A stretch of 63,650 nucleotides of DNA, filler included, from Conidiobolus incongruus B7586 (Eukaryota): the NCBI GenBank assembly GCA_000697335.1. It is 8 parts of 8 records of this genome, joined end to end, with 100 filler letters (N's around TTAATTAATTAA, not from the genome) between each part and the next. Parts side by side here need not be neighbours in the genome. Positions count along the whole stretch, not along the records: positions 59,864 to 62,235 come from JNEM01006224.1; positions 62,336 to 63,650 come from JNEM01006232.1; 6 more parts are not named here. One strand, written 5' to 3'. Within the stretch, counting starts at the first letter, position 1; each line of letters begins with the position of its first letter. The notes below the pieces were generated by a model that was given only the letters and a program-made list of their open reading frames with translations, was not told where the DNA came from and searched no databases. Positions 8,963-63,650 of the stretch are shown one piece after another. A program made the position numbers and the translations under genes.

Positions 8963-9973
8963 CTCTATATTTTAAATAATGGGAATTTTTTGTAATTTAA
9001 AATAAATATACATTTTGATATATAATATATAAAAATAAATAAAAATTATAAGTTTAATAGTTTGTTTTATTATTAATACCTTTTTACTATACTTTTAATA
9101 AACTTCTAACACTTAAAAAATAATTTTTTTTATTAAAAATTGAAATTTAATATTTCACAAACTAATTAAATTTTTCTATAAAAATTTTCTTTCTTATAAG
9201 CTAGTTTTTTAATTACTTAAAGCAATTATAATCACATAAGTTATAATCTAAAGAATATACTAGATGTAGTAGTTTTTTCTAGTTATTTTTAATCAAAAAA
9301 TTTTTTATAACTTTAAATTTATATATTTTATAATTATTTTATAAAATAATAAATTTTTTTAAATTATATTAAGAATATTAATTAAAAATAACAAATAATA
9401 TTATAATTTATTATAATAATTAATATTTACTTATTAATAAAATATTTATTTAAAAGGATTTGTAAAAAAAGTTGATTTAACTTAACACTTTGATTTATAT
9501 TTTAATAAAAGATTATATAAAGGGAATTAAAATTTATTAATTATAATTATTTATTATAAAAGTTTAAGCATTTAGTAATATATTAATAAGTTTTATTTAA
9601 TAATTATTATTGTATCTTTTTTTTAAGCTTTAGTTAAATTATAAGGTATTTATTTTATACTTTTATTTATTAATTTGAGTTTAAACTTTAATATATATAA
9701 AATACTTATAAAACTAATATTAAAGTGTTTAAATATTTTTTTAATTAAAATAAAAAGGTATTTTTTAATATATTTTTTCACTCTATTAATAACTAAAAAA
9801 ATAATAGTTAAAATTAATCTTTTAAATTTTAATATATTTTAAATAATTTTTCTCTTTAAAAAAATTTACTTAATAATAAATTATTGATTTAAATAATACT
9901 TTATTATCAAAAGTTACTTGCAAATTTTAAATAATTTTAAAGGGTTTATGGTTAAGTTTTATTAATACTAAAA
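8963..9973 (-). mobile_element. Mariner transposon relic, heavily C>T/G>A mutated; runs into the gap
   Basis: Terminus TA|CTCTATATTTTAAATAATGGGAA at 8961. Minus strand 9231-9290 reads *KKLLHLVYSLDYNLCDY, a decayed form of the mariner WxxLPHPxYSPDxxPxDY motif. 9800-9973 is the reverse complement of the transposase 5' part at about 63310-63490. Confidence 0.85.
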
Positions 9974-10073: not shown

Positions 10074-10124
10074 TCATTCAATTCTCATTGGATGAGGACA
10101 TCCAATCTTAAAACCCCCCGGTAT

Positions 10125-15020: not shown

Positions 15021-16369
15021 ATGTCTTCATTATCAGATCGCCAACATGATGAATTGCGCAAATCAATTTTAGATTATTTATATAATAATGGTTTAATGGA
15101 ATCTTTTGAAGCTCTTCAAAGAGAATCTAATAATGAAGATTTTATCCCTGACCCTAAATTGAGATATGCTAATTTATTGGAAAAAAAATGGACCTCAGTA
15201 ATCAGATTACAAAAGAAGGTAATTTTTATCTCTATTTTTTTTAGAAAAATAGTATATGATTAAAATTGAAATTTAGATTTTAGATTTGGAAAATAAGTTA
15301 TCAAATATGAGCTTTGAATTGCAAAGTGTTCCTTCTAAGAAGAATATGAATAATTCAGACTTCCTTCCAAAAGGTCCTGAAAAATTCACGCTTGTTGGTC
15401 ATCGTAATCCTGTTACACGTGTTATTTTCCATCCCGTTTTTGCTGTCCTTGCAACTGCTTCTGAAGATACAACTATTCGAATCTGGGATTATGAAACTGG
15501 TCAATATGAACGCAGCTTAAAAGGTCACACTAAAGCAGTTCATGATATATCTTTCGACCCTAAGGGAAATCTTCTTGTCTCCTGTTCATCTGACCTTAGT
15601 ATCAAGCTCTGGGATCTAAATAACGACTATCAATGCACTAAGACTTTGCATGGTCATGATCATACCATTTCATCTGTCAAATTCTTACCCTCTGGTGATA
15701 AAATTGTCTCTGCTTCTCGTGATAAAACTATTAAGATATGGGAAGTGTCTTCAGGATATTGTATTAAGACTTTGGTGGGACATAATGATTGGGTAAGAAA
15801 GGCTGTTGTATCTGAGGATGGAAAGTACATCGTTTCTTGTTCGAATGATCAAGTAAGTATTATATTTACGAATTTATAACTTTTTTAATTATTTGTAGTC
15901 TGTTAGAATTTGGGATTTAGCAAGTGGTGAATGTAAAACTGATATTAGAGGCCATGAAAACGTTGTTGAAACTGTTATTTTTGTTCCTGTCCAAGCTTAT
16001 CCACATATTTATACTCTTACTGGAATTAAGCCACCCACAAAGGAAGCTGCTTCGACACCTGGTCAATTTGTATTATCCGGATCTCGTGATAAAACTATTA
16101 AGCTTTGGGACTTTTCTGGCCATTTACTTCACACATTCATTGGGCATGACAATTGGGTTAGAGAATTATTAATTCATCCCAATGGTAAGTATATGTTAAG
16201 TTGCTCAGACGACAAAACGATCAGAACGTGGGAATTGTCTACTGGTCGCTGCAATAGAAATTTCGAAGGTCACGAACACTTTATCACCAGCATAGCTTTC
16301 AACCAAAATGCACCCTTCGTAGCATCAGGTAGTACGGATCAATCCGCTAAAATTTGGGAATGTCGATAA
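15021..16369 (+). CDS. PAC1: LIS1/NudF/Pac1 dynein regulator (LisH + coiled coil + WD40)
   Basis: N-terminal LisH, LLEKKWTSVIRLQKK, and WD40 repeats (GHRNPVTRVIFHP, GHTKAVHDI, GHDHTISSV). Introns 15219-15276 and 15853-15898; ends KIWECR* at 16369. Confidence 0.96.
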
Positions 16370-22306: not shown

Positions 22307-22698
22307 GAAAATCTATTATTTTGTATAATAATGATAAAATAAATACTTAAAGTTATAAAAAATTTTCTAATTAATAATAACTAGAAAAAAATACTATATT
22401 TAATATATTTTTTAGATTATAGTTTATATGATTATAATTGCTTTAAGAAATTAAAATATTTTCTTATCAAAAAAAACATTTATAAAAAAATTTAATTAAT
22501 TAATAAAATATTAAATTTTAGTCTTTAATAAAAAGAATTATTTGTTAAATTTTAAAAGTTTGTTAAAACTATAGCAAAGAGTTATTAATAATAAAAGAAA
22601 CTATTAAATTTATATTATATTATCATATCTATTTATTATATATCAAAATGTTTATTTATTTTTAATTATAAAAAATTCCCATTATTTAGAATATAGAG
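22307..22698 (+). mobile_element. Mariner relic, 3' end (same family as 8963-9973)
   Basis: Inverted copy of about 8963-9330, ending TTCCCATTATTTAGAATATAGAG|TA. The YSPD region has decayed to *KKILYLIYFLDYSLYDY. Confidence 0.85.
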
Positions 22699-23009
22699 TA
22701 ATATTAATAAAATCATTAAGTCAGGATTAGTGCAATATTATATATTTATAAAAAGCTATTAATTTAGGTGGGTAAGTGAATGAATTTAATATTAATAAAT
22801 AATATAAAAACTATAATATATTATAACTTTCATTTTTAAATATTTAAGTTATAATCTTTGAAAAGTGCTAAATTCTATATTCATAGCAATAATGAATCAA
22901 AAAATATAGATGTAATCTTCATATAATAATATATTATTAATAGAGTTTAATCCTTGATCTCAAATAAGAACAGAAAAATATATAAATAAATAATATTAAT
23001 AATGATAAT

Positions 23010-27058: not shown

Positions 27059-27090
27059 ATTTTTCAAGTTGATTCATTTGTATATACCAA

Positions 27091-39367: not shown

Positions 39368-39702
39368 TGTCATTTGTCAGATGACTCCTCTCCTACCTAA
39401 TCTACTTACTTCAACCTAACGTAAATATCATTCCTCCTTCGCATATTAGTTACTTTTGCTTTAGCTTTAATTGGCTGATGATGCAAGCCACAGAAAAATA
39501 TCATAAATTACCTTACCCAATTCACACTGTACAGAGCCCAGAATTTGAGCTATTCCCAAACAGACAAGTTTAATCTGAATTCTCCTAGCTATCTGGAATA
39601 AGCCATTAACTCCCTATCTCCCTAGCAGTTACGTGGAATTCTCTAGATCTCCCTCATATATTTATACTCATCCAAACACTGATTTTCCAAGTCGTTTTAA
39701 TA
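39368..39702 (+). mobile_element. LTR-like repeat, family 2 copy b (diverged, solo)
   Basis: Starts TGTCA and is colinear with 10125-10462; similar 3' end (TTCCAAGTCGTTTTAATA vs TCCCAAGACGTGTTAATA). No clear target-site duplication. Confidence 0.65.
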
Positions 39703-40686
39703 TAAAGATGAAATATGTTTTATTATAGTAAAAATTTATAAACTTTAAATTTTTATAAAATTTTATTTTAATAAAAAAATACTCATATTCAAAATAATTT
39801 TTAATTGATGAAAATTTCTATTTATCTTTTTTTTAATAAATATTTATTAATAAAAATTAAATCAATTTATAACTAAAAAGAATCTATTTTGAGAATTAAA
39901 TTTGTAATTTAAATGGTTCATAAAATATTTTTTCAAAGTTACACAAAGCTGATTAATTTTTTGATTTTAATCATACTATTAAAAATTTGATTAAGATCAT
40001 TTTTGAGATCAATCATATCTATAAATCATTCATTATTTGGATGCTATTAAGTTAAATTATTCAACTTTGAACAATATGGTAAGTAATTAAATTTTGTTTA
40101 AATTAGAATATCAAATTGGTCAACCTAATAAAAGCTATTGTTATTATTAATAGTATTGTAAATGATATAATAATATGAATGTCAATTTAATATATGGCAA
40201 ACTATGAAATAATCGGAATAATGATGAGAATGAATCTTGTTAAATTATTCCAGGGACTTTTTATTATATCTTTCACAAATAAAGTAGGGTACCTGGACTT
40301 GGTTATGTTGAGATATATGAATGATAATGAAATTAATTAGATTTTCATATTTTAAAACACTGATAGCATCAATGATGATATGACTTTTTATTAGTAAATA
40401 ACATATTATAAAATGCCGAATATATGGAATAAATTGGATATAGTACTTTTTGGTTGATTGTTAAATTTTTCAAATCCGCACGTCACTATTTAGTTGCAGT
40501 AACTCCAAAAACCTTTTGTTCAAGATCCGATATCATATAGTTAAACCTAAAATACTATTAAGAATATGCTCAGTTGAATTTTATCATAGTGTTGGTTGTA
40601 TACTATTGTGACCCTTGGAGTTTGGGTGGATATATAATGAGACATTGAATCAATTGGTTTTTGGATATCATTCTTTAACCAATACA

Positions 40687-42090
40687 CTAATACTTATTAT
40701 AAGTATCCTGCTTAGGATGCGTATGAGACGGATGGTATGTCTTGGGGCGATATGGCCACTGGCCTTCGTTGGATGCGTATCTATTTTTCTCAACCTTGAT
40801 TTTGTTGGAATTATGATATTTTCTGCTACTACTATCACATCTATTATCAGAAGAACGATATGGGTGAGAATAAGAGTTTGAGTGAGATTGAGAAGATTTG
40901 GAATAAGAATGTGAATTATTTGTATGATGAGCAGGACGGCGATAATGAAAATCAGAATTAGAATTAGAAGAATAAGTACTACTTCTATCGGGTGATTGAA
41001 ACCTACTTGATTTGTATGGAGGATAATCGGGATCTTTGATTGATGGAGAAACGCAATCATTAGGCATTTTAGTTGATTTAACTGCGTCATCTAGAAACTG
41101 TTTGATAGTATCTTTAATATTCGAATCCAAACTATTAGTCTTCTTATTATAAAATTTCTCTGTACCATTTTGAAAAACATCAGAAGAATCATTATCCGTA
41201 TTATCTTGTTTGATATAAACTGCTTGATCAAGGAGAGTCTGTGGCGAATTATAATTACTAGTCTGTGAAGGATATTTGTTTTTTACATCATTGTCTGATA
41301 ATGCCAGTGAAGGAGAGGGAGAAGAATCTTTTACTTTGAGAGCAGAAGCTGAATAAGCACCTTCAAAAATTGCTATACATTTTGTTATATATACTTGGAA
41401 TAGGTATTGAATGTGCTGGATCATTTGACTGAAAGTTGTCTGAAAAGAATTATTAACCATATCACATAACTTTTTATACTCTTCCTGAGTCATTGTATTT
41501 TCCATAGCGCTGAGAGATCTTAAGCATCTTTTCACAAACTCTTCTGTTGCTACTTCCGTTTTAATACTATATATAAAATTGGTTAACTCCATTTTTGTAG
41601 AATTTAAAACTGCAGTCCCCAAATCTTTTCTATATAGATCATTGATAGAATCCACCAAATATACTAAAAATTTACTAGCTTCATCTACTTTAAGAGAGAA
41701 CGGAACAAATAATTGTAAATTTTTGACAAAACCAGGTAATTGTCCATTTTCATTTTGTTTATCCATATGAACAAGTCGAGAAGCGCAAGAGGCAGCTTCC
41801 TTTAATAGATAGACATAATCTGATAGTTGCTGTCTCGCAATAGTATTGAAACGACTTGGTGCATCACTAAAAAGGTCGGTTTCAAGGTATTTTGGTGTAT
41901 GAGATTTAAGTGGAGATTGATAGCTAGGACTAGAAGGAAAATCCATACCCAATGTTGTAGTAGGTTGTAGTAGGGATGGTGGAATTTCCAAAGGGTTGAG
42001 TGGCTTGTACTTATATAAACGGGGTTTTCCGAAGAGGTCATCAATTTGTTTTTGGATAGATGGTAAGGTATCATACAATAAAGTCACCAT
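40687..42090 (-). CDS. Hypothetical 467-aa single-exon protein (helical core, Ser/His/Tyr-rich tail)
   Basis: Uninterrupted 1.4-kb ORF in very AT-rich DNA; no family recognised. Confidence 0.6.
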   Translation of the reverse strand: MVTLLYDTLPSIQKQIDDLFGKPRLYKYKPLNPLEIPPSLLQPTTTLGMDFPSSPSYQSPLKSHTPKYLETDLFSDAPSRFNTIARQQLSDYVYLLKEAASCASRLVHMDKQNENGQLPGFVKNLQLFVPFSLKVDEASKFLVYLVDSINDLYRKDLGTAVLNSTKMELTNFIYSIKTEVATEEFVKRCLRSLSAMENTMTQEEYKKLCDMVNNSFQTTFSQMIQHIQYLFQVYITKCIAIFEGAYSASALKVKDSSPSPSLALSDNDVKNKYPSQTSNYNSPQTLLDQAVYIKQDNTDNDSSDVFQNGTEKFYNKKTNSLDSNIKDTIKQFLDDAVKSTKMPNDCVSPSIKDPDYPPYKSSRFQSPDRSSTYSSNSNSDFHYRRPAHHTNNSHSYSKSSQSHSNSYSHPYRSSDNRCDSSSRKYHNSNKIKVEKNRYASNEGQWPYRPKTYHPSHTHPKQDTYNKY

Positions 42091-45000
42091 TGTTGTATTA
42101 AAAATATCAATTGATTATGTTGTATAATAAAGTTTACCGATTATAAAAATCAAATTACTAGCAAATATGAGTTCGATGTTAATTGATAACAAAACAGAAT
42201 GAGATCAACATGTCCCTTTTCTCATTTATACATCATCAAAATTCTCCAACCAATAATTACTCATGTATATCATGTACGAGACTAAAATAGACCTTATCTT
42301 GTTTTATCTTATATTATACATTATCCAATCATAATCAAAATGAAAATTCTAATAGAATATTCATTAAAATTATAGCTTTTCTAACTCTAATCTTTGCACA
42401 AGTTTTCATATCAATTAAGAGATAATTTCAATAAAGTTCATATCACCATTTTAAAGTTTTCTCCAAGAATAAATTATTTAATAAAATTGGATTGAAGAGT
42501 TACCTTGTTTATATGATAATATTCAAAATCAAGTCATGTTATAATTAAGAAGAATATTATAATAAATGATTTTGTTAATCAAAATACTATACTCCATTTT
42601 TTATTGAAAATCTGAAAATACAGATTTGAATTAATTAATCAAAGGTTGAAAATTGAATATTTTTACACTTCAAAAAACATTCAATAATTAAATGAAATTA
42701 TGTTCCAAATATCATTTCAGTAGTTGAGTATGTAGTATGTGTTTTAATTACTTAATATTTTTTGAAGCTCTTTTATTGAATCTAATCAAAAATTATTTTG
42801 CAGTATCTGAAGATTTTGTAACTCTAGGTTTACACTAAATGATCAAAATTTTAGTACAAAACTAGATAAATTCTTTGAGAACTATAAATTTTTAGATTTA
42901 TAATATTTTCAAATAAAGCAAACTATAATTTTAAATAACTAAACATATTTTGATCAAATATTTCTTATTGAATTTAAGGCTATTTTTTACCTTTTCCATA
43001 AAAATTAATCTCAAATATGTATTTAACCACAATATGATATAAATTTTGACAATATATATCAACTTTAATTAATAATAAAATGTCATAATATATCAACGTG
43101 ATTACTTTGAATTAAAATCAATATTTTTATTCTGTTTAATTAAATTTTAAACTCAAAAGTCGCTTTTAACAATGAGTCTATTTATTTTCGAAATATATTA
43201 CAATAATAAAATAAGGATTATCCAAGTGTTATTAATATTCAACTATAAATATATATATCATTAAGAAACTAAATCATCGTTTGATATCAAATATAATCAC
43301 ATTCAGTAAACTCAGTTGTTTTCCAATAAGTTTGATTAAAACAATTTAATTAATTAATTGTATTTAATATAAAAAATCGAATTTTAAATAATATATCTTA
43401 AATTCAGGCAATATGTAATTGATCTTGGCTAATGTATCAATAAATCGTCAAGACAAATCTTTGAACAAAGTTATAAGTATTTTGAAATTGTTCGCTATAC
43501 ATGAAAAAATTATATTTTTATCAATATTCAATATATATATATATAATTCCAATAAACAATAATATATTTATTCAAATTATTATTATATATAGGTTGTATT
43601 TACATCAGTATTATATCCAATACCTTATTCAATATTCTATATTTTTTAAATGATATACATAATCATCTATATATTTACAATTTTTTTGGTTCATTTATTA
43701 ACGATATTATATTTAAAGTATCTAGTTGTTGAATGTATATATATTATTTAATCCAATAATTTTATATTATTTGTTAATTATATTTGTACATATCAATATA
43801 TCCACCAGAAAATTCAATATAAATCACGGCATTATCTTATTGAATATACTAAAACAATATTTAATTTAATATACAATAATTTTAAATAATATTACAATTA
43901 TAAAATTGAAAATATAGTATTTTGAAATATATTGATGTGGTATTGGATGAAAATGTGATTATCTTGAATATTCAATAATTCATTACTATTAAATTGACGA
44001 AATCATCAATGATATTAGAAATAGCTTGAATGAAATATTATTATTAACATATGTTAATTGATATTATAAAGGAATATTTGAATGTTTTTTCTGTAAAAAA
44101 ATGCAATTTTACAGTGTTCGCAATCCTGCAAAATTATTTGGAATGAATAATTGTTGGCATATTGGCCAATAGTTCGTATATTCATTTGGATTTAAGATAA
44201 AATACTCTTCATAAAATACTATTCTTGAATTTATTTATTTATTTGGTATATTAATTCTTTCATAATTTATAATTGATTATGGTTCATCTACTTATTTGGC
44301 AAAATACCTTGAGAATGTTGTGCATCGTTTTTGAATATTTTGACATAAATTTGAAATAAATTCACTATTGTGATTCTTTTCAGTATTGCTTCTGACTACT
44401 GTAATTGTGGGAGAAAATAGACTTTTAGAGCTTAAACAGGGAATCGCCAGTGGTAAACAACAAGTTACCACAGAGTTACAGAAAATTGGTGGGGTTCACC
44501 AAATGAGGTGCAAGTAGTTTGCTGTAAATTGGGTTCTTCGAGTAAAATAAATATCCCACGCTTGTCATGACTCAATACTTTTTTGAGGATTACAAGAAAA
44601 GCTTAGAGACTGGATATTTTTGAAATAAAGATAAAAAAGATATGTTTATTAGTTCATTCGTGATAATGTTATATTAGAGTTCAGGAAATGGGTGTTCTCC
44701 AATGTGTCTTCCCGATTCAGTGTATTAATCGCAGTTTCTTGAGTAATTGACAATACTATTTCACATCACTTTATATTTATATAGTTTATAAATTTTATAA
44801 TCAACTGTTTAATTTGAAAACCTGAAACTATCAAATAAAATTTCGATTAAGAAATTGATATAAAAATCGAGCCAATTGAATCAGATATTTATGTTTTCTG
44901 AAATAGATATAATCATTATATAATGGAAACAATAATGAATCTTATATATAATGCTTAAGTTACATTTTATTCAATATATATAGTTTGGAAATCCTCAAAG

Positions 45001-48000
45001 TCATAGAGTGCTTTAATTTAGCCAAAATCAAATATTTTGTGACTAAAGTTAATCATTACTGCATTGGTCCGCTGGAAAATACAGTTTAATCATTAATCAT
45101 GATACAAAGTTTAATTCATCTCAACCAGACTATATCCTTTGTTGATAGTAAAACCCACAATGAAGAATCTTTAAAATAGTTTTTGAAAACATCAATAATG
45201 TTTTATTATACATGATTCAAGTATATGTCTATATTGTAGATTAATAAGGTCCTTATTATAAATTAAATAACATTTCACACACGTCTTATTAACAATGTGA
45301 TTAAATAAATATCGAGCTTTTTGCATTGGTTTTTTTCTCTAGCATTCATTCTTTAATTAGTTTTGACAAAATAAATCTATCTTCAATACCTTAAGAATTA
45401 AATTAATTGAAACTAATAACTTGGAATAAATTTTATTGGGCCTTTCATTGTGAATTATAGCACTGAGTAACTTCAATGACTTAAATCAAAACACTATATA
45501 TAACTAGATTAAATGGAAGTTATTAACTTACTTTAATATATTTTTATTCAAGATTTAATAAAAAGTTAATTATATCAATAAATTCACAAAATTATCCATT
45601 AAAGTCAATAAAACATGAAGAAAAACACTTTCCATTATAATAATAAGATATGCCTCATTTTAAATATTATTTTATTAAACTCAATTTGATGAAGTGTAAG
45701 TTAATCAACTTCTCTAAAAAACTTTAAATGATTCAAGGACTAAATCAAATACTTAATTAGATTAAAATCTATCAAATAATAAGAAACTTAGTCATATCAT
45801 CAGTATCCTAAAACTTTAAAAGATAATTTCAATAACTCACCTTTTTAATGATGTTTAATTCAATTATATTTAATTTATCATCATCTATGAATTTAAATTT
45901 GAATTATTATCTATAGAAATTCCATTGCATATAGTTGGTGGAGATAAGTCAGTTTTTCAGTCTTCCATACAAGTTTGAAAAACAAGATTACTCATTAAAA
46001 ATCTTTGAGTAAACTAGTAAAGTCAGTGGTAAGATAGAGACATTTCATCAAGATGAAAAAGTTTGGGATGTGGGATATAGGACCACTAACAATCTTGGTT
46101 TGAAATATTAATATTAAGAAAGTTGTTTAAAATTTTGGGATTAAGATGGTGGGAGTGTTCAAGAATCAGGTCACTATAAACAATACAAGACTCCTAAATC
46201 CATGATTTAGATCCAATCATTAGGTATATTTAAATGATTTGAGATGATATTGAGTCTAGGCAATTTAAATGTTACCGAGGTGCTGTATTATTCATTCTCA
46301 GTTCTGGTAAAAAAGTATAAATTAGAACAATTTTATGATATATTTATTTCTGGAATAACAATCCAAGGATGTGGCGTACTTCACGAAATTTCAGCACTTT
46401 ACATGATAGATATTTTAGACATATTAAAATTAAAATGACTATTTTTCAGAATTGTTAATGAAATTGATGAGGTAGCCATAAAATATGCTGAAGGCTTAAA
46501 AGTTAGATCAAGCATTAAGTAATTAATATTGATAGAAATAATCAACCAATCATTACAAGATGTAATGATCGAAATTTAAGCTCTCAGTTACCTCAATCTG
46601 TAATGCTTGGATTTTCTCTTCTCTTAAAAGATCTATCAAAAATTATCCTTGATTTTAATCAAGATTAGAAAGATATGTTGTAACTGAGCAGTATTACCGA
46701 ATACGAAGCTTTTGAAAATAATGCATCAGAGTTTATTTACAACTCATATGATCCTTTAATATCACCACCAGATCCTCCAATATTGAAAGATGGTTGAGTC
46801 GTAACATGACAAAACTGAATCAAAGGAGCATTGTTTTTATATTAGTGGACGCAAAGTACATTCAAAGAGCTTGCAAATGAAACTGAAATAGATGTTTATA
46901 GAGGGAAAGCAATTTAAATATTATTCAAATTCAATTTTAAATAAGGAGCGAAACCAACACTATATTGTAAACCTTCGGCTCATTCTCCACATTTTATAAC
47001 TAAATAATTGAAAAATGAGTTTACTTCAAAATTCGACAATATCTAATAGAATAAAGGCATGTATTATCCTACTCCTGTATTATAAGTTGAAACATTTGAA
47101 CACTATAAGAATAATATATTATACAGCAAATAAATTTTATCACTCGTATTGAGTTAAAATCCTGTAAAAATTTATTATACACCTATAAGAATATTATTTA
47201 ATAAATATTTTTAATATTTAAAATATTTAAATTATTAATTCTCAATATATAATATTATTTCAAAATAATTTTTAATAATATTGATTTGTGTTTGTTAATC
47301 CTAAAATGGAGAAGGATTAATTCCTATTTGAAACATATAAATTAATTATTACATTAATATAATGAATATGAATAATAAATAACTAAAAAATAATGATTCA
47401 ATGCCTATCTAAATAAATACATAATATATATATATATATTCTTTGAATTATCATGTTTGTATTTCACAATTTTAATTAAAAATTTTGAAATATTATTTTG
47501 GTAATAAAAATATTAAGAAAAGATCACAAATTTACTAAATTATAAAAATATATTAAAATCATATTGAATTGATATTAAAAGAATTCAAATACTAACACTC
47601 ATAGAATCTTTGTAATTAATACCGATTTATAATATCTGTAAGAAAGAAAGAATTGGCAAATTATTTTATGTCTGATTTTTAAGAAATATTATTAATTTTA
47701 AAAAATAGATTATATACAAAATATATAAGTGAATTAATATTAAAAGTAAAAAATAATATTGACTTCATAATAAAATATTAATTAATATATATATATATTT
47801 ACTATGTTTTTTATATTTTATTTAACTTAATTTAAAAAAATATTTTAATATAAAATATTAATTTTAAATTTTTATTTATCAAGCTTTCCAAAATTAATGT
47901 AAAATGTAAAAATTATTTTTTATAATATTATATATTATATTTTAGTATTTGCCTGTTTTTAAAAAATAAGAATAATTGGATATTTTAATTATAAATAATA

Positions 48001-50100: not shown

Positions 50101-51435
50101 CTATTTAAAGTACCTTTGGACAATATAGTTTGCAGCGCGAGCCGAGTGTTCCAAAGTCTCCAGAGTCAGAAGTGGTGTGGAATAGTACAATCCCTTAATG
50201 CCTTGTATTTGATCAAATTTGGAATAAAATCCTTCCTTTAATTCTTGGGTTAAGACATGGGGAAAGTAAGACCAGGATTTTCCGTAGAGTGCTGGTTTTG
50301 CACCTTCTCCTGGTTTTAGTTTGTTAAATGTATCAATCACCTTCTGTTTGTAAATTTCCATTTCACTCTGACTTGCGGGTTCCTTGAATGCTCCTCGAGT
50401 CCATGAATATGAAACAAAGGCACCTCTTGTATGATTGTACCAGATTACAACTCGGCCATCTCCCAATACAGGTGGATTGGGAGGAGGTAGCAAGGGTGAA
50501 TACGCATTATGAGAGAATCCAGGTGCATAATTTGCAAATGTAGCATATTTGTTAATACTCACTTGTTGCAAAACTTCTTTTTCTTTTTGGCTAAAGTCCA
50601 AAATCATCTTTGAAAGATCGTTTAAGAGTGGTGGAAATGCAAGCACTACAGAGTGGCAAAAGTGTGTTTTTAATTTACCATCATTGGATCTTGTAAAGAC
50701 AATGGATCGGTCCTTATTTCTCACAATGTTGATCACTTTAGTATTCAAACTAATGTCCAAACCTTGAGCGTATTGGCTAGCTATCTCATCCATTCCATTG
50801 GGTACTTGATAAAAATTGGCTTGACCACCACCCAATAAATCGAATAATTGGACCAAATAAAGTGCAGGTGTTTCATCGAGTGCACCATAACCCTCCATCG
50901 TTAAATAAGTAAGTACTGTAGAGTTCAAAGCCTCAAGGTTATTCTTCTTCATCCAAACTGAACATGGCTCAAATAACTCTTCACTCACATCCATAAGTCC
51001 AGGCTCCACTTTAAGACTTTGTCTCAACCTAAAGTAATTGGTAAACGCTGAAATAACTTCTGGCTTAATGTCATCGGGAACAGGAACCTGCATTCCAGAG
51101 TCTTGGTTATATACTACATTATCACCTTTAACCGCTTTGATTCTCTGAATACCAAATTTTTCCACAATTTTGTTAATTTCGGTATATGCATCAGTTATTA
51201 ATACTGGTCCCATATTCCAAACTTTACCATCTTGACGAAATGTATGCATCTTACCTCCAACATTTCCATTTTGTTCGAATATTTTCACTGAATAGCCTTT
51301 ATCCTGAAGTTTGTGGCCAATATGCAAGCCAGATATACCGGCACCAACTACACAGACTGGAGGTTTGATATTTGGTATCGATTGACTGCTGAATTGATTG
51401 ATTAAACTTAAATATAATATATTAGAAAAAATCAT
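50101..51435 (-). CDS. Secreted FAD-dependent oxidoreductase (flavin amine oxidase fold, PUFA isomerase PAI-like)
   Basis: Hydrophobic N-terminal leader; VVGAGISGL...E...VGGKMHT dinucleotide-binding motifs; C-terminal WSYFPHV....K.GFY.K...QG..G.YY; intronless. Confidence 0.85.
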   Translation of the reverse strand: MIFSNILYLSLINQFSSQSIPNIKPPVCVVGAGISGLHIGHKLQDKGYSVKIFEQNGNVGGKMHTFRQDGKVWNMGPVLITDAYTEINKIVEKFGIQRIKAVKGDNVVYNQDSGMQVPVPDDIKPEVISAFTNYFRLRQSLKVEPGLMDVSEELFEPCSVWMKKNNLEALNSTVLTYLTMEGYGALDETPALYLVQLFDLLGGGQANFYQVPNGMDEIASQYAQGLDISLNTKVINIVRNKDRSIVFTRSNDGKLKTHFCHSVVLAFPPLLNDLSKMILDFSQKEKEVLQQVSINKYATFANYAPGFSHNAYSPLLPPPNPPVLGDGRVVIWYNHTRGAFVSYSWTRGAFKEPASQSEMEIYKQKVIDTFNKLKPGEGAKPALYGKSWSYFPHVLTQELKEGFYSKFDQIQGIKGLYYSTPLLTLETLEHSARAANYIVQRYFK

Positions 51436-52662
51436 TACGAATAAATTAATTAAGTATTATGAAAAAATTATTTAAAGTTTATACTATCTAATTTATACTT
51501 ATTCATTGATTATATTTTCATTCTGTATATTTTGATGTTTTACTCTCTCCTAAATCAATTGCAAATCTACTTTATTGTAATATTTGTTTAGTGTTTTAAA
51601 TTTTTATAATCTTCTGAAACTTTTTAAATTCGGATTTAATCATAAAAATCTAGATTTTGTATCATTAAACTTTATTCTTTTTTTTCCTAATTAGATTGTA
51701 TTTTGTAGATTGGCTGTAGTAATTTAAAATATGAATTTCACAACTTTTTTAAATTTATATTATATTTATTGACCAAGAGGTTGAATCAAGGTGTGTAGTT
51801 GATTGGATAATAATAAGATTGTAGACATTGGATGAAAATCTCAAATTACTGAACATAAATCTATATCATATAGTATAATTAGATTTAATTAATGTTTATT
51901 TTGAAAATGAAATTGGATGATATATTCTAGAACATATTTATTATTTAATACTCTATATAGTAATTTGAAAAAAAATTTGATACTATTATCTTTCAAATGC
52001 CAAATTCATTAAAAAATTCATAATTAAAACCAGATTAATTCCAAATAATAAAAATTTAACAATAAATATTTTGATATTTTTATTGAAAATCAATATATAG
52101 GATTTGCTATTTATATCTTTATTATAATTTTGATTCACATAATGTCGACGAGAATGACGAGCATATTTTATCAGCATTCGAATTAATAAATGAAATATAA
52201 TTTAAGACGCCAAAAATTTGATAGATTGTAAAATTTTTGCTAAAATAATCCTGAATATATCAATTGGAGAGTATTCGTTTGGTATAACTGAAAGATTCTA
52301 TTTAAAATTTGATGTTATAAACCTAATAATATCAAAACATAAATCATATACCTTTTACATTTTAGAAGTTCAAAAAAGTCAAAAATAAATCTTTTATCAA
52401 TTAACTATATATTAAAAGGTAAATATTTTAATTGTGCTATATTGAATTGTAATTTTAATTGAGATTGTTAAAATTAAATAATAGAAAAAATGTCAAATAC
52501 TGATATCTATATTAATATCTTAATAAAATTAATTATTACTATTATTGAAAATTTTAAATATTAGACAGTGTTTAGCAATTGTTGATTGTAAAATTATATA
52601 AGTACATTGCATGCAATATATCAATATATGAAAACCTATTAATAAAAATCACAAGAGATTAT

Positions 52663-54563: not shown

Positions 54564-54842
54564 ATATTATTTTCCCTATATTTATCAGTTCTGAGATTTG
54601 ATTGATATGTTTTCAATATATAAATTTATTAACTTCAAAAATATTCTAAATTATTCTTGTATTCAACTTTGTTTAATTATTTTATTCTTATTTAAGTGGA
54701 TTTATTATTATTAAAATACTTTGATAAAAATTATTTTAAATATTATTTAATTGAAAATTATATAATTATTCTTTTTTTTTGAATTAATATAAATAGACAC
54801 GGGTTCGCAATTTAAATAGTTATATTGAATCTAATACTGAAA

Positions 54843-55190
54843 ATGACTGGTATCAATCAATTCACTACTTTGCTCTCTGTGATTCTAACTCTTGTTGGAG
54901 CTGCTCCATCTCCGGGACCATATCCTCAGTCTCCTTCTCCTCGTGGTGGTGGTAAATTAGCTAAGAGATGCTTTGGCGGTTGGGATGGATGTGGTGGATG
55001 GGGCGGTTGGGGAGGATGTGGATGGTGTCCAATTTTCTTTGCTAACGAGAATTGTGTTGCTTCCGACTGTTTCCATGCCAGTAATTTTGATCACGACGTT
55101 GCAGCTGCAGCATTTTGCGAGAATACCTGCTGTAATGAAGTTGATGCTAATAGTTTTGTTTGCAATGATTTTAATACTTTTTTCGCATAG
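54843..55190 (+). CDS. Secreted Cys/Gly/Trp-rich peptide precursor, copy 1
   Basis: The real ATG is at 54843, with TATAAATA at about 54788. Signal peptide, Pro-rich propeptide, LAKR Kex2-type site, then a 73-aa mature region with 10 Cys. Confidence 0.9.
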   Translation: MTGINQFTTLLSVILTLVGAAPSPGPYPQSPSPRGGGKLAKRCFGGWDGCGGWGGWGGCGWCPIFFANENCVASDCFHASNFDHDVAAAAFCENTCCNEVDANSFVCNDFNTFFA

Positions 55191-56229
55191 AATGAATATA
55201 AATAAATTGATATATTAGATGTTACAAAACCATTAAATGAATTTTTTTCAGCTTAGTTAAATAGATTATTAAAATACAAAAGGGATTGCTTTATATATGG
55301 TTGTATGTATGCAATATCATTAAAACCAAACGATTTAATTTGATATAAATTCTTATTTCAATATCATAAACTCAATTTTCTGCTTGAAATATTTGAGTAA
55401 ATATATCAGATTAGCAATTTTTTATGTTCAATTACTTCTAACTTTCACTTTAGTTTCATTAAATTCCAATTATCTCACAAAATCTATAATTGGCACTAAA
55501 TTAAAATTTAAATATCAGAATAATCAGAATATCAATGAAAAAAATAATCATATAATTAGAGAAATATCAATTGGTAAATTTATCAGTTTAATAAGTTTTA
55601 ATCAACTAAATCTATTAAATTGGTCTTATTAAATATGGTTTTATCTTTATTTAATACACATTAACCGTAATAAGAATATTGATTTGAAATTAATTTGATA
55701 GATATCAAATTAATTTTTAATATATGATTGTTAAATAAATTATAATGACCTTGATCATTGTTACTAAGTATTCAGGCTTCTTTATATTGTGTATGAAAAA
55801 TGTTCAAAAAATAAATACTAAATAGATATAATCACTTACATATTTCTTATTTTTTATAACATCAGTAGTAGTCATTTAATCCAAAGTTGATTTAATATTT
55901 TTTTAAATTATTTATAATTAAATATGTAATTTTTTTTCTCTTGGTTTCTAGAATTGTAAAGTATAATAATATAAATTTGATTATATCTTTGCACTATTAA
56001 AGTTCATTTAGAAAAAATCAACTATATTTAAAATTATTAAAATTATCTAAATATTAATTTAATTTTGATTGATTAAGTGCTTATTAAATTATTTCATTTA
56101 ACAAATTTAATATTATCAAATACAAAAAATAATAATTATATCTATTAATAATGTCTATAGTAAGAGAGTAGTATAAATATTCTAAACGTTTCCTTCAAAA
56201 CTTCAGTGTATTGAACTAGATTCTCAATA

Positions 56230-56571
56230 ATGACTGCTTTTAACCAACTTGCCTTATTTGTTGCTATTACTTCTTTAGTTGGAGCTGTTCCTTCTCCAAG
56301 ACCTCAACCTCAACCATCCCCTCGTGGTGGTGGTAAATTAGCTAAGAGATGTTTTGGTGGTTGGGATGGATGTGGTGGATGGGGCGGTTGGGGAGGATGT
56401 GGATGGTGTCCAATTTTCTTTGCTAATGAGAATTGTGTTGCTTCGGATTGCTTCCATGCCAGTAATTTTGATCATGACGTTGCAGCTGCAGCATTTTGTG
56501 AAAACACTTGCTGCAGTGATGTTGATGCTAATAGCTTTGTTTGCAACGATTTCAATACCTTTTTCGCCTAG
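56230..56571 (+). CDS. Secreted Cys/Gly/Trp-rich peptide precursor, copy 2
   Basis: Same architecture, with TATAAATA at 56172. Mature region is 71/73 aa identical to copy 1. Confidence 0.9.
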   Translation: MTAFNQLALFVAITSLVGAVPSPRPQPQPSPRGGGKLAKRCFGGWDGCGGWGGWGGCGWCPIFFANENCVASDCFHASNFDHDVAAAAFCENTCCSDVDANSFVCNDFNTFFA

Positions 56572-58859
56572 ATTTTTATTAAATAAATAGACTACTTAGA
56601 TATCTTATTACACATTAGCATTTTTTTATTTTAACTTATTCAGCATATAATATATTATATATTATATATTATAATTTTGATATGATTTAACACTAAATTG
56701 GAAACCTATCTTTGGACATGGTTTTATAAGTTGGTTAATTCATGATATTTTTATTATAATTCAGATTTATTAGTAATTAAAATNNNNNNNNNNNNNNNNN
56801 NNNNNNNNNNNNNNNNNNNNNNNNNNNTTAATTAATTAANNNNNNNNNNNNNNNNNNNNNNNNNNNNNNNNNNNNNNNNNNNNATTTATTATTAAAATAT
56901 TAATAATTCTATTTAATTTTAATATCATTTTCAAGATTAAATCATTATTTAATCTTTGAACTAATAATAAATTTATATAATTAATATTAAACTATTATAA
57001 TATTATTTTATTTAATTAATAGTTAAATAAATCATAATGATGATTATTTTTTAATAATTTTTATAATCTCAATTTTATTATTTTAAATAGCTATTAAAAC
57101 ACTCTAAATATCAACAAAATATAAATATTGTAATTTTTGTATAATTTTTAAATAATTTTTTATTATTTATTAATTAGAGTATAAATATTAAACTTTTAAA
57201 AACATATAACAATTACTCTTATAAGTATAATTAAATTCAATATTAACGATTAAGAGAAAATATTTTGATTTAAAAATATTATTTATCAATATATATTTTT
57301 TAAAACTATAAATTCTCTTACTTTTTTTGTACAATATATATATATATATCTAAATATAATGATATATTTGAAAAATTATTAATTAAAAAACTTTCCATTT
57401 TTAATTGTGAATTAATAATTTAAATTTTTGAATATTATATTATAGATATAAAAGAGTACTAATATAGTAATTTTATCAAATAATTTTTATTATTATATGA
57501 TAATAATAAAAGTTATAGTTCTATTTTAAAATAACTGAATAGAAATTAACCCATTGATTATGAATGTGATACAACAGAAAAAGATAAATTTAATCCATTC
57601 CTAATGATAATATATTACAAATTATATACAAAGTTAAGAATGTTTTTAACACAATTATTTAAAAATAATAGAATGTTTGGAAGTTAATATTAAATATACT
57701 TATATGGCTTATGTATAGTCATTTGATACAGACAATTAAGAAAACTAATCATTGAAATATATTGGTATAAATATCAAAAAAGAGAATTTTAATTAATAAA
57801 AAGTATTAATTCTATTTTATCGTTTGAGGATATTAATTAATTTCATATATTTCAACATACTTCAGATTCGATAAATATATCATTAAAATTTACTGAGATT
57901 TTAATATAAAAATATCCAAAACACCATATTATTTAATTCTTGTACATATATAAAACATTCTAAATATGTATTTAATAAAGAATTTATTTTTGATTTAAAA
58001 TAGTTATATTAAATTATCAATCGTATTATAAATTAAATCATTTCCACATTAAATTTTATTGAAATTTAGATATCGGTATCATATTTAATCCGAAATAATA
58101 AATTAAAATTTTAAAATTAAAAATTTGATTTAGTTAATTGAAATTTAAAAATATTATTGATTTAAATAAATATTTAAAATAAAACTACTGTATCAAATGA
58201 AATAAACCATTTTATTGCAAGTAATTTTAATTATTAAATGAAAAATTTTAGATATTGATTGGTATATTTAAAAAAATGGTTAATTTTTTTGACGCAGCCT
58301 GTATTGAATTATCAGAAATAAAATTTCATTTAGCAAGAAATATCGCTCTTAGATAGCTATATATTGACCTCGGGATATATATTTAATTTTTTCAGATTTG
58401 ATATTTGAAATTTAATACTGAAAACCAAATTTCATTTTGTTAATTTTTGGTTAACACGATAATGTATAAGCTATTGTTTCCTTATTGAACCTTATGATTT
58501 TTTACAGTGTAGAATTTTCGGACAATTGTATTCATATAAAAAGGCAACATCATCTCATATTGAGTTTATAGTGTTAATGCTTATGGAAATATAATTAAAC
58601 TATTCAGTAAGTATATTTTGAAATATATTGTATCAAAATTTAATTTCAGCAATATTAAAACTATATAAATGTATTATTGTAATTAATCAAATTGATTAAA
58701 ATTTTTATATCAAAACATTCATAATTTGATATGATGTTTATGTTGGCTACTAAAACTTACTTTTCTATATTATTATCGCTCTTTTTATTACTTTCTATTA
58801 CAATTATTAGATTAATTTGATATATCAAGTATTGATCGTTTAAATTTTTATAGATAAAT

Positions 58860-59763
58860 ATGACTAAAGACTCCAGTTTAAAAGAAATGAAAGGAAGAAA
58901 GGTGTTACCCACCAATGTTAAACCTTCACATTACTTAATTAGCCTTCGTCCTAATTTAGAAACTTATCGTTATACCGGTTCAGTGACTGTTGAGTATGTG
59001 ATATAATTATTAAATTTATTTGAATTTCAATTTAATCATATTATAGCTTATATATTAACGAGGAATCTTCAGTCATTTCATTAAATGCTATTGATTTGAA
59101 TCTTGAATCTGGTAGACTCTTAACCAAAAGTGGTCAGCTCATTGAAGAGTAAGTGATATTTGAATACAACTTTTATATTTTTAGGTCTAAGCAGCTATAT
59201 TTAGGATTTCTAAAGACCACATGGAAATTGTAGTTGCTGACGAAGTTCTTAAGATTACATTGCAAAATTCCTTATCTGCTGGTCAAAATGTCAAACTCTA
59301 TTTAGAATTTGAATCAGAACTAAACGACAAATTGAGGGGTTTCTACCGTTCTCACTTCAAGAATGAAGAAACTGGTGAAGATAAAGTCATGGCCTGTACC
59401 CAACTCGAAGCCACAAACGCCAGAATGGTTTTCCCTTGTTGGGATGAACCTTGCCTCAAAGCTACTTTCGACGTTGTATTAGAAGTTCCCCAAGATGTTA
59501 CTGCTCTCTCCAACATGAATGCTATCTCTGAAGAGAGCATTGAAGGAAATCTCAAGAGAGTCACCTTTGCCACCTCTCCCATCATGTCCACATATCTTTT
59601 AGCTTTCGTCGTTGCTGAATTAGATTATATTGAAGCTTTTACCACGGTTGGAAATCCCATTCCTTGTAGAGTCTATGCTCCCAAGGGTACTGTACATCAA
59701 GGTAAATTCTCTCTTGATGTCTGTACTAGAACCCTTGATTTGTTCAACACTGTTTTTGGTATT
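58860..59763 (+). CDS. M1 family aminopeptidase (puromycin-sensitive/Ape2-like), 5' part truncated by the gap
   Basis: RKVLPTNVKPSHY, GFYRS, TQLEATNARMVFPCWDEP..KATF, ALSNM and SPIMSTYLLAF. Introns 58994-59046 and 59149-59204. Confidence 0.93.
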
Positions 59764-59863: not shown

Positions 59864-61367
59864 TTTAACAATATATAACTATATTTTTTTTCTATTATAT
59901 TATATAATATTTTACAAATATATTAAATTTTTTTATTAATATTACTATATTTAAATCCCTTTTTAAAAAAATTCACTTATATATTAATTAACTTTATAAA
60001 TAAGATAAATCAACTTAAAATATTGCTAGAATTACTAGTGTTAGTTAGTTTATTATAATTAAGGTTGTTAAGAATAATAATAAAAACATATTTAAACTTA
60101 AACTTAAGTATGTTAAGATTATAGATAAATATAATGAGAAGTATATCTATAGGTTAGTTAATACAGATAAATATAATATTATTATAAAAATATAACAATA
60201 ATTATAAAACTATACAAAAATATTAGTTAATACTAATATCATTATATATACTTTATATTAACATAGATACCATTTACACTTTAAGAAAAATGTAAGCATA
60301 GTGGTAGTTAAACCAATATAGTGCAGAGGAAGACTTAATATAAAGGTAGTGTGGTGTAGAACATGGTAATATAATGTGGCTGTAGCATGCAAGTGTAAAC
60401 AAAGTTTAATTAAGCTTCAAACTAGGATGAGTCACCAATATATTAAGGTTTATATTAGGTAGTGCCAATATCCTATAATATTGACAGAATATAGTCTCAA
60501 TCTTAAAAATAGTGTAAAAGTAAGAAATAGTAAGAATTGAGAGGAAAAAGAGGAACCTAGTTTATTATATAATTCAATGCTATTTATACAATTAATTTAA
60601 CTATATAAGTATAAATTAATCATATAATTTATAGTTAATTGGATTATATGAAAGTATATATAAGAATTTAAAGAACTAGTCTCTTAACAAAAAAACACCC
60701 CTAATTAAAAAAGTCCCATTATAAAACTAAGTAGGAATTTAAATATCACTATTAATATTAAACTAAAACTAATTAAAATAAAGTTATTTAATCTAATGAA
60801 ATAAAAATATATCTTAATAGATTTGATAAAAAAGTTAAATGCTTCAAAAAAAATATAAAATTATTTTATAATCATTATATTAATTTTTCCTAAAAGTATA
60901 ATATTAAGTTAATTATTATTAAAGGATATATATTGTTTTTAGATATAGGATATCTTTGTAAAATTAATAAGTGAACTAATATTGAGATATATTAAAATAT
61001 CTTAAAAAATAAATTGAAAAAAACCATTGAATAATATAAGTTAAACAAATTTAATATTATTTTCCAGCAAGATAATACTTTTTGTTATATTATAGTTTTT
61101 ATTACCAAATAACTTAAAAATAACAAATTAATAGTTATAAAGTAGCTTCTTCAATTTCTTAACTTTAATTTAATTGAATATCTTTAGGATTAGTTAAAAA
61201 AAGCTATTAAAGCTTTTCCCCTAATAAAAAATTTAAATTAATTTTAAAAATATGTTTGAGAAGTATAAAATAAGATTAACCCTTCTTAAAGTAAAAAGTT
61301 AGTTGATTTTATACCCCATAAACTTAAAGAAGTTAGAAAAGCTCAAGATAGATATACTAAGTTTTAA
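59864..61367 (+). mobile_element. Tc1-family (DDE) transposase relic, hypermutated, interrupted by a solo LTR
   Basis: VI*SNEIKI at 60783 (VIWSDETK), FQQDNTFCY at 61062 (FQQDNAPCH), *LLQFLNFNLIEYL* at about 61143 (WPPQSPDLNPIEHLW), and the C-terminus FIPHKLKEVRKAQDRYTKF* (SMP.RL..V..A.GG.TK). Confidence 0.88.
60291..60689 (-). mobile_element. Solo LTR, family 1 copy A (399 bp)
   Basis: TGTAAG...CTTAACA termini with a 5-bp AAAAA target duplication; removing it restores the Tc1 frame. Orientation is inferred from copy B. Confidence 0.9.
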
Positions 61368-62553
61368 TTTTTTTTATCACCAAAAACCTACAAATTTATA
61401 ACTCACTTTAGGTAAAATTTAAGGATTGATATTTTAGCCAATTAATAACTAAATATCATCATTTAATGAGTTATATTATTAATAAATATAATTGATTTTA
61501 ATTATTTAATTTAAGTTTATTTTATTAAATATTCATCAAATTACTAGTAAAAATATAAGTATTTTTGATTTTATAACTTATTTTTGCAAGTTAATATATA
61601 ATTACTAGTCATTTTAATATTATTATCTAATATTTTTATTAAATTATTATTTATTTTAACACTTCAATTGCAAAATTAAATTATCAATGCATATGAGTTT
61701 ATAATTATTTCAAATAATTGTTTTAATAAATATTAAAATAATTAGCTTAATTTATAATTATTTAGGTTACTAATTTGATATAATATTATAATATATGTAT
61801 GCCAATTAGATATATATTGATTATTTTTATATTAATAAACAAAAGCTAGTAAAAAGAAAGAACTCAGATAAATATATTAAATAAATTATAAAATCATAAT
61901 TTTATATATAACTACTTATAATTTAAAAAATCCTTAATTTAGTAAATTCAAATTTCAATACAAAATCAAAATATATTATTTATATAAAACTATTATATTT
62001 GATATTATTTAAATTATTTTTAAAAAACTTATTTTTTAAATTTCTTATTTATTTTTTATTTAAATAAATTAACTAAAGATGATATAATTAGATTTTATTT
62101 TTAAAATGAAATTTTATAAATAATAATAAATTATTTAATAACCATGGTTATTCTTTTATCTCTTATTTTTTTTATTTTTTAATTTTTATATTATTTCTGA
62201 AATTAAAATTATATTCTATTAAATATTTAATATATNNNNNNNNNNNNNNNNNNNNNNNNNNNNNNNNNNNNNNNNNNNNTTAATTAATTAANNNNNNNNN
62301 NNNNNNNNNNNNNNNNNNNNNNNNNNNNNNNNNNNTATTATATAAATATTAAATTTAATCTTTTTTTATATTATATTAGTTTTATTATTATTAAATTTAT
62401 AATATAGAATAATTAATATTATTAGTTTAAAATAAGGAATATAATCAAAAGTAATATTATTTAAAATAAATATAAAATCTATAATATAATAATTTATTTT
62501 AAAAAATAAACGAAAAACCATATATGATTTTAATTTAATATAATTATTAATAT

Positions 62554-62951
62554 TGTAAGTGTAGTGGTAGTTAAACTAATATAGTGTAGAGGAAAACTTA
62601 ATATAAAAATAATGTGTGTAGAATATGGTAATATAATGTGGCTGTAGTGTACAAATATAAACAAAGTTTAATTAAGCTTCAAACTAAGATGAGTCACTGA
62701 TATATTAAGATTTATATTAGGTAGTGCCAATATCCTATAATATTAATAGAATATAGTTTCAATTTTAGAAATAGTGTAAAAGTAAAAAATAGTAAGAATT
62801 GAGAAGAAAAAGAAAGACTTAGTTTATTAGATAATTTAATACTATTTATACAATTAATTTAATTATATAAGTATAAATTAATTATATAATTTATAGTTAA
62901 TTAGATTATATAAAAGTATATATAAGAATTTAAAGAATTAGTCTTTTAATA
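62554..62951 (-). mobile_element. Family 1 LTR copy B, the 3' LTR of a chromovirus
   Basis: About 90% identical to copy A; terminal CA is mutated to TA. Abuts a minus-strand polypurine tract AGAGGAG (62952-62958). Confidence 0.88.
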
Positions 62952-63084
62952 CTCCTCTAGTAAATATCTTAAAAGAGACACACTCCTTAAATTTTTACAA
63001 ATAGGTATAATAGGTTAAAGTATTCTTAATATTTTCTAGAGGTTCTTATGTAATTTTTTTAATAAGATAACCCATCTATTTTAT
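62952..63084 (-). mobile_element. Ty3/Gypsy chromovirus 3' internal relic (integrase chromodomain + PPT)
   Basis: Minus strand reads IK*MGYLIKKIT*EPLENIKNT, a decayed KWxGYPxEExTWEPxEN chromodomain, followed by the PPT and the LTR. Confidence 0.75.
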
Positions 63085-63086
63085 TA

Positions 63087-63189
63087 CCTTAAATTTAAAA
63101 TAATGGGAAATTTTTTAATTTCTAATTTTTCAAACATATTATTAGTTTGAAATGAATAAATATATACAAAGTTAATAGGAAATTATATA

Positions 63190-63221
<32 letters not shown>

Positions 63222-63554
63222 TAGTTTTTTTGATTAAAAAATTAACTTTTTAAAAGTGGTTGTTTAATTTAATCATGCTTAAACCAAATAGTGATCATCA
63301 AAAGTCTTTTATTTTGGTATTAGTAAAACTTAACCATAAACCCTCTAAAATTATTCAAAATTTACAAGCAGCTTTTGGTAATGAAGCATTATCTAAATCA
63401 ACAATTTATTGCTGGGTAAATTACTTTAAGGCTAAGAGAGAAACTATTCAAAACCTGCTAAAATCTAGAAGACTAACTTTAACTGTCACTCTTTCAATTG
63501 TAAATAGAGTGAAAAAATATATTGAAAAGCACCTTTTTATTTCAGCTAGAGAAT
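63087..63554 (+). mobile_element. Mariner relic, 5' end with transposase HTH; interrupted by an LTR
   Basis: TA|CCTTAAATTTAAAATAATGGGAA resembles the TIR at 8963 and 22698. ATG at 63275; LQAAFGNEALSKSTIYCWVNYFK is a mariner HTH, and the RSGRP linker has decayed to KSRRL. Confidence 0.88.
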
Positions 63555-63650
63555 TGTAAGTGTAGTGGTAGTTAAACTAATATAGTGCAGAGGAAGACTT
63601 AATATAAAAGTAGTGTGGTGCAGAACATGGTAATATAATGTGGCTGTAGT
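63555..63650 (-). mobile_element. Family 1 LTR copy C (partial, window edge)
   Basis: TGTAAGTGTAGTGGTAGTTAAAC... matches copies A and B and cuts the mariner ORF after SARE. Confidence 0.9.

Follow-up and report, generated by a model that had tools for sequence, protein, structure and literature searches.

The stretch of DNA analysed here (the window) comprises 63,650 nucleotides in eight joined parts from Conidiobolus incongruus B7586 (GCA_000697335.1) and contains copies of a long terminal repeat (LTR) family together with remnants of a Tc1/mariner DNA transposon. In these two unrelated element classes, chromosomal DNA has undergone a directional, repeat-associated C>T process that acts on both strands, and its compositional signature is absent from genes and ordinary intergenic DNA. 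The process is RIP-like in outcome, that is, it resembles repeat-induced point mutation (RIP); its relation to RIP proper is kept here at the level of analogy. To the explanation favored below, a DNA methyltransferase (DNMT)-linked C-to-T mutator of transposon DNA guided by methylation or chromatin, we assign a probability of roughly one half.

A pair of LTR copies differing almost only by transitions

Four copies of the LTR family lie near the end of the window:

60291..60689 (-, strand inferred from the purine tract beside copy B): solo LTR copy A, TG...CA ends, GC 26%, no CpG
62554..62951 (-): LTR copy B, 398 bp at 19% GC, its terminal CA now TA, heavy C>T/G>A
63555..63650 (-): LTR copy C, of which only the first 96 bp precede the window edge, abutting a mariner transposase remnant
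62014..62227 (+): LTR copy D, old AT-saturated relative in the opposite orientation, 76% identical to B

Copies A and B are on separate parts with an artificial gap between them (62236-62335), so their adjacency in the genome is not implied; each of the seven gaps (9974-10073 and six more) consists of 44 N, TTAATTAATTAA and 44 N, an artificial contig linker. A full-length pairwise alignment of A and B (399 columns) contains 39 substitutions, of which 38 are transitions and one a transversion, together with one 1-bp indel (60353), precisely the counts that a first-pass annotation of this DNA had estimated by hand. Read from A to B, the changes are 16 C>T, 17 G>A, 5 A>G and 1 T>G (60568). C>T/G>A changes towards B outnumber the reverse by 33 to 5 (p = 4e-6), and A is the less mutated copy. 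Both strands of B have been altered (16 C>T, 17 G>A), and the two kinds of site are intermixed along the LTR (17 runs versus 19.4 expected) with no strand-run clustering, which disposes of the one-strand origin that the annotation had raised as a possible objection. Its three CA/TG sites, CA in A and TG in B, are located at 60297-8, 60386-7 and 60436-7.

The window has 8 self-matches, and three other pairs from this set served as controls:

54894-55210 / 56278-56591 (+): tandem duplicated small gene, 88% identical, with a 68-bp identical run
10123-10464 (+) with 39366-39704: second LTR-like family, GC-rich, starting TGTCA, 70% identical
8952-9357 / 22308-22709: AT-rich repeat pair, about 400 bp, 11% GC, no CpG

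The ratios of transitions to transversions in these pairs are 21:15, 53:37 and 32:28, respectively. Neither the tandem gene pair, which keeps its CpG, nor the second LTR-like family, which retains 6 and 4 CpG, is hypermutated, and the AT-rich pair is probably an ancient remnant that the same process has saturated. Against 21:15, 32:28 and 53:37, the 38:1 of the A/B pair gives Fisher p values of 3e-5, 7e-7 and 2e-6; across all comparisons of control pairs with hypermutated sets, including the mariner pair described below, p ranges from 8e-4 to 5e-11. A looser self-search (21 matches, many of low complexity) added two further pairs. Copy D compared with B shows 19 transitions to 23 transversions, and the paralogues at 46457/50213 show 99:96; here the flavin amine oxidoreductase gene at 50104-51456 has a diverged paralogue whose DNA is 65% identical (46457-47036 and 50213-50799). 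Saturation can mask the signal in copy D and in the AT-rich pair because almost no G/C is left in them.

Transversions can also be used as a clock, dividing transitions per G/C reference site by transversions per site. The resulting ratio is 141 for A/B and 46 for the mariner pair, or 25 and 16 when the upper 95% bound on transversions is applied, versus 3.1, 3.3 and 8.7 for the three control pairs.

The same pattern in a DNA transposon

Two mariner copies are present in the window:

63254..63554 (+): N-terminal remnant of a Tc1/mariner transposase (Pfam HTH_48, E 2.8e-6), 301 bp without CpG
9748..9973 (-): hypermutated second copy of mariner, 11% GC versus 27% in the 63254 copy

Alignment of 9748-9973 with 63312-63542 yields 37 transitions and 3 transversions. 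The direction is again strongly asymmetric, with 35 C>T/G>A changes in the 9748 copy versus 2 reverse transitions (p = 1e-8), and both strands are affected (15 C>T, 20 G>A). Changes fall alike on the three codon positions (13/25, 14/21 and 8/13). The less mutated copy is itself worn: it lacks CpG and reads LKSRRL where mariners carry a PRSGRP-like motif. These observations support a repeat-associated cytosine mutation, as the first-pass annotation had proposed, and extend it from an LTR element to a DNA transposon.

Composition of repeats and of AT-rich non-repeat DNA

The window has a GC content of 24%, and its intergenic DNA about 16%. Of 64 1-kb bins, 5 have a positive composite RIP index, all over repeats (9001-10000 and 60001-63650), and one further bin, at 11001, is marginal (0.05). 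The signal includes the whole contig around copy A:

59864..62235 (no strand): repeat-filled contig around A, 0 CpG in 2372 bp, composite RIP index positive

Repeat DNA that we selected, 5111 bp in all, contains 1 CpG versus 29 expected. The 13 AT-rich non-repeat 1-kb bins (GC below 20%) hold 58 CpG versus 86 expected (p = 6e-7 against GpC); their CpA/TpG is not depleted and their RIP indices are negative. Since AT-rich non-repeat DNA retains CpG and CpA/TpG, the intergenic deserts must be AT-rich for another reason, and the suggestion in the first-pass annotation that the mutator explains them is not sustained. Repeat DNA is further characterized by an enrichment of CTAG (about 5-fold) and a depletion of TCCA/TGGA (about 9-fold), a skew that possibly reflects a finer target motif. 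A sequencing or DNA-damage artefact was considered and rejected: genes retain open frames and CpG, and the variants occur on many separate contigs. As a separate observation, nested repeats cluster at contig ends (59864-63650 and 8952-9973), with an LTR inside a host repeat in one arrangement and an LTR beside mariner in another.

Sequence context of the changes

The targets rank CpG >> CpA > CpT > CpC. All six inferred CpG dinucleotides have been destroyed in both A and B, and the loss shows no TpCpG restriction, as ACG, GCG and TCG are all gone. The earlier statement that no CpG survives holds for these two copies (0 in the 399 bases of A and 0 in the 398 of B) but fails for the family, in which CpG persists at 60386-7 in at least 13% of depth-weighted contigs. 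With LTR B and the 9748 mariner copy pooled and scored on a G/C-maximal reference, hits were found at 28 of 52 CpA, 30 of 80 CpT and 5 of 26 CpC, the difference between CpA and CpT being not significant (p = 0.07). CpA, CpT and CpC are thus all hit, as claimed, with CpC the weakest: B has 3 of 18, one of them of doubtful polarity. Changes are not confined to CpG, since 29 of the 37 in B lie elsewhere.

Among available cytosines in the family data, 9 of 10 CpG, 13 of 45 CpA, 11 of 70 CpT and 3 of 27 CpC were changed; these figures come from the 36 polarisable rows among 40 listed of about 130, after 3 near-fixed rows and 1 transversion had been dropped. Survival odds in repeats relative to AT-rich non-repeat DNA follow the same order, at 0.07 for CpG, 0.57 for CpA, 1.31 for CpT and 1.64 for CpC, with 0.38 for TpCpA and 0.62 for TpC contexts. 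CpA thus leads the non-CpG contexts (28/52 versus 30/80 for CpT; survival 0.57 versus 1.31), with CpG higher still. CpA is itself a target because CpA/TpG is depleted, whereas CpG decay would add CpA/TpG, and CpT hits cannot be hidden CpG. Decay restricted to CpG was rejected on the depletion of CpA in repeats and the 30 of 80 CpT hit. The context had been called unusually relaxed; it does reach beyond CpG, but it is ranked, and it stays within the range reported for ascomycetes (PMC4352252).

Insertion structure and variation of the LTR family

Variation beyond the window was read from contigs of four public runs (X1-X4) of one sample, which is possibly the source of the window itself, and these therefore lend no independent support to its sequence. 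Of the public runs listed, these 4 contained the sequence and 3 others next to none of it, and no RNA run was among the matches listed. The following features define the insertions:

60286..60290, repeated at 60690-60694: target-site duplication AAAAA, 5 bp, flanking copy A
62952..62960 (-): predicted polypurine tract, purine-rich, abutting LTR B, assigned from its position

Copy A is a solo LTR inserted in another high-copy repeat, as indicated by its TG...CA ends, the AAAAA duplication and empty-site contigs. Three of the 4 runs contain the empty-site joint (60285 to 60690, with 5 shared letters), and in each run 22-37 contigs pass from 60290 straight into the downstream flank. The flanks of A are covered by many contigs, and the differences among the rows listed are transitions only. 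In 26-36 contigs per run the LTR instead runs on at 60687 into the sequence found after B, and the sequence beyond 62951 matches the loose end of the family at 60687-60689. Copy B is probably the 3' LTR of a minus-strand element, because the minus-strand purine tract adjoins it. No Pfam family, and hence no retroelement domain, was recognized in 21 six-frame read-through frames of the repeat DNA (X at stops).

The LTR family is clearly large: between 5929 and 8301 contigs per run align to 591 bases (60200-60790), a depth that is not to be read as a copy number. Over the same interval, places varying at 1% of depth or more comprise 117 transitions versus 6 transversions in X1, and 115:6, 116:7 and 114:6 in X2, X3 and X4; this count favors recurrent changes, hides private ones below 1% of depth and thereby inflates the ratio. 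Because private transversions are concealed in this way, the pairwise ratios are the cleaner measure. In X1, 76 of 135 reference C/G sites vary. At 60345 and 60448, 2 of the 17 G>A differences between A and B, about 99% of family contigs carry A.

Host placement

Two exons serve as taxonomic markers:

15277..15876 (+): LIS1/PAC1 exon, 179/192 (93%) identical to Conidiobolus coronatus PAC1 (P0156)
59191..59760 (+): M1 aminopeptidase exon, grouping with Entomophthora and Neoconidiobolus

The LIS1 search was dominated by long WD40 repeat proteins, and P0156 was its sole informative match. For the aminopeptidase exon, the best named matches were Entomophthora muscae and Neoconidiobolus thromboides, and a quick maximum-likelihood tree of 33 rows, with no bootstrap and no Pezizomycotina row, placed it in the Entomophthora/Neoconidiobolus clade on a long stem (SH-aLRT 99). 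Judged by these markers, the host is a Conidiobolus-type member of the Entomophthorales and not of the Pezizomycotina, in agreement with the early-diverging fungus that had been supposed; placement in Pezizomycotina, the circumstance in which the pattern would have been ordinary RIP, does not apply. Metagenomes were also searched for P0001, an 86%-identical relative; the 80 loci obtained did not exceed 59% identity and were not used.

Comparison with known systems

RIP of the type found in Neurospora crassa and other Pezizomycotina is among the closest likenesses. There, too, C:G>T:A changes are dense in repeats and two-stranded, with very few transversions; CpA is, as it appears to be here, the main non-CpG target, and CpA/TpG loss with TpA gain is confined to repeats. 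The present case differs in that the host belongs to the Zoopagomycota, CpG is the strongest target and short duplications in the window are spared. Thresholds for RIP have been placed at about 400 bp and 80% identity (PMC3318451), and the spared pairs, at 317 bp/88% and about 340 bp/70%, lie at or below them. The RID/Masc1 methyltransferase has been reported only in Dikarya (PMC5751038), and RIP-like mutation at sites other than CpG has been linked with ascomycetes and RID/Masc1 (PMC4352252; PMC12543289). Signatures of CpA plus CpT and of CpG plus CpA are known from Magnaporthe, Botrytis, Sclerotinia and Tuber (PMC4352252).

Two other systems involve methyltransferases. In Zymoseptoria tritici, Dim2-dependent mitotic mutation acts in methylated repeats, about 95% of changes being C>T; such a methyltransferase-linked route, independent of a sexual cycle, would yield the spectrum seen here. 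However, CpA accounts for more than 98% of the Zymoseptoria changes and CpG is left intact there (PMC8016269), whereas here CpG is lost and 30 of 80 CpT are hit. Pucciniomycotina show TpCpG hypermutation that is likewise outside Pezizomycotina, CpG-led and repeat-associated; it is CpG-only, whereas most changes here are non-CpG and free of TpCpG restriction (PMC3318451). This hypermutation has been attributed to a DNMT1-class (Masc2/DNMT1) enzyme in the absence of RID (PMC4352252).

Within the Entomophthorales, a 2024 study reported a RIP index signal of 24.2% for Zoophthora radicans and 2.4% for Entomophthora muscae, along with PF00145 proteins of RID-like architecture (PMC11105155); no PF00145 rows were found in its supplementary tables as available. 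That work concerns the same order and likewise proposes RIP-like mutation outside Dikarya; in the literature searched it was the only such report. It rests on indices that carry the caveats of its authors, whereas the evidence here, from the Conidiobolus lineage, is alignment-level and polarised, with sequence context and internal controls. A kingdom-wide screen of 2025 found that for RIP-like signatures 'ascomycetes were unique'. Its k-mers were computed on scaffolds above 50 kb, and the fragmented C. coronatus assembly yielded 0 repeat matches over 1 kb at 95-100% identity and 555 at 80-95% (PMC12543289). K-mer screens can miss the signal because the non-repeat DNA is already very AT-rich. 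No alignment-based report in Conidiobolus or other Zoopagomycota was found in a literature search whose coverage mostly excludes subscription papers, and no Conidiobolus RID or GC rows were among the matches listed from the available supplement of PMC5751038. Methyltransferase genotypes for Conidiobolus may already be in print.

A proposed methylation-guided mutator and its alternatives

In the explanation to which we give about even odds, a predicted cytosine methyltransferase of the DNMT1/DIM-2 class would mark transposon chromatin, and 5-methylcytosine (5mC) or an enzyme-bound intermediate would be deaminated to thymine faster than by passive decay. Conversion would take CpG first, then CpA and CpT, with CpC least, and targeting would follow transposon silencing and not the pairing of any duplication. 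The methyltransferase is proposed as agent by analogy with fungal cases in the literature; a Pfam scan of 20 open reading frames (ORFs) in the window, to which it was confined, contained no RID, DNMT or deaminase. Methylation-guided targeting is consistent with CpG as the top target and with the sparing of tandem genes that are 88% identical.

Several observations weigh against this explanation, besides the inflation of the family counts and the non-significant difference between CpA and CpT mentioned above. Some repeat pairs have ordinary spectra, namely the 10123/39366 family and copy D. Saturation accounts for copy D but not for the GC-rich 10123/39366 family, which is a real exception. A portion of the CpA hits may once have been CpG, if A and B alike have lost the G, and the family data shift 60362 and 60483 from CpA to CpG. 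At 60345 and 60448, an A>G change in copy A is the probable origin of 2 of the 39 A/B differences. The single-copy comparison consists of composition and paralogue pairs only. Finally, C. coronatus was scored 'no_rip' in the 2025 screen (PMC12543289).

RIP proper, or an independently evolved equivalent in which homology between duplicated sequences is recognized in the sexual (zygospore) stage and C-to-T changes come in bursts, is the nearest alternative, although we consider it doubtful. The spectrum, the density, the involvement of both strands and the strong asymmetry between copies all suit it, as do CpA and TpCpA as top non-CpG targets, a composite RIP index positive over repeats only, and the index signal of Z. 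radicans with the RID-like domain architecture in its order (PMC11105155). A guided mutator is preferred because CpG ranks above CpA, short duplications are spared, amplification of the LTR family remains high and reports of RID are limited to Dikarya. A homology-sensing, RIP-type defense in Zoopagomycota that works without RID, through a DNMT1-class mutator acting on CpG plus CpA/CpT, is a similarly tentative proposition; if true, RIP-like mutagenesis would be as old as terrestrial fungi or would have evolved twice.

Passive decay, by which transposons methylated in all contexts lose 5mC through spontaneous deamination with no dedicated mutator, is unlikely. It would explain why CpG heads the targets and has all but vanished from repeats, and CG and CHH methylation of transposons occurs in the early-diverging mucoralean Phycomyces (PMC11258239). 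Yet C>T per site runs 141-fold and 46-fold above the transversion clock, non-CpG sites are heavily hit (29/37 in B; CpT 30/80), and non-CG methylation in Phycomyces is low, with CHH at 0.9% versus CG at 3.4% genome-wide (PMC11258239).

It is very improbable that a genome-wide, AT-biased and transition-rich mutation process has simply eroded GC-richer new insertions with no targeting of repeats. The low GC of the window and its intergenic DNA, and a single-copy control limited to composition and paralogues, speak for such a bias; the other pairs in the window are transversion-rich (21:15, 32:28 and 53:37, and 99:96 in the paralogues), and AT-rich non-repeat DNA keeps both CpG and CpA. Still less credible, and largely refuted, is an origin in reverse-transcriptase error or in the editing of retroelement cDNA by an APOBEC-like enzyme, which the LTR nature of the original pair and the somewhat depleted TpC in repeats (odds ratio 0.62) might favor. 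One-strand retroelement polarity would then be expected, whereas C>T and G>A are nearly balanced (16 and 17) and interspersed, and the equally hit mariner, a DNA transposon, has no cDNA stage.

RIP-like mutation in this host matters in several ways. Alignment-level, polarised evidence places such a trait in a phylum that branched off earlier than Dikarya and in which it is disputed, having been anticipated by index-only hints (PMC11105155). C. incongruus offers a small-genome fungus in which to ask which enzyme converts repeat cytosines and whether sex or pairing is needed. The question also bears on the contrast between the gigabase, transposon-filled genomes of Entomophthora and the small genomes of Conidiobolus.

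Other features of the window

The tandem genes used as a control (54816-55190 and 56215-56571, +) encode small Gly/Cys/Trp-rich proteins of about 115 amino acids that are probably secreted. Each has a hydrophobic N-terminus, a Pro-rich linker, a KR site, GGWDGC-type repeats and a Cys-rich tail; they gave no Pfam family and no usable Atlas match. Three further ORFs likewise have no Pfam match:

40690-42114 (-): ORF, 475 amino acids
20382-20996 (-): ORF, 205 amino acids
21265-22041 (-): ORF, 259 amino acids

An ORF at 27073-28209 (+), whose GC content of 48% is the highest of any stretch in the window, combines a GATA zinc finger with a PHD-like finger and is possibly a chromatin regulator.

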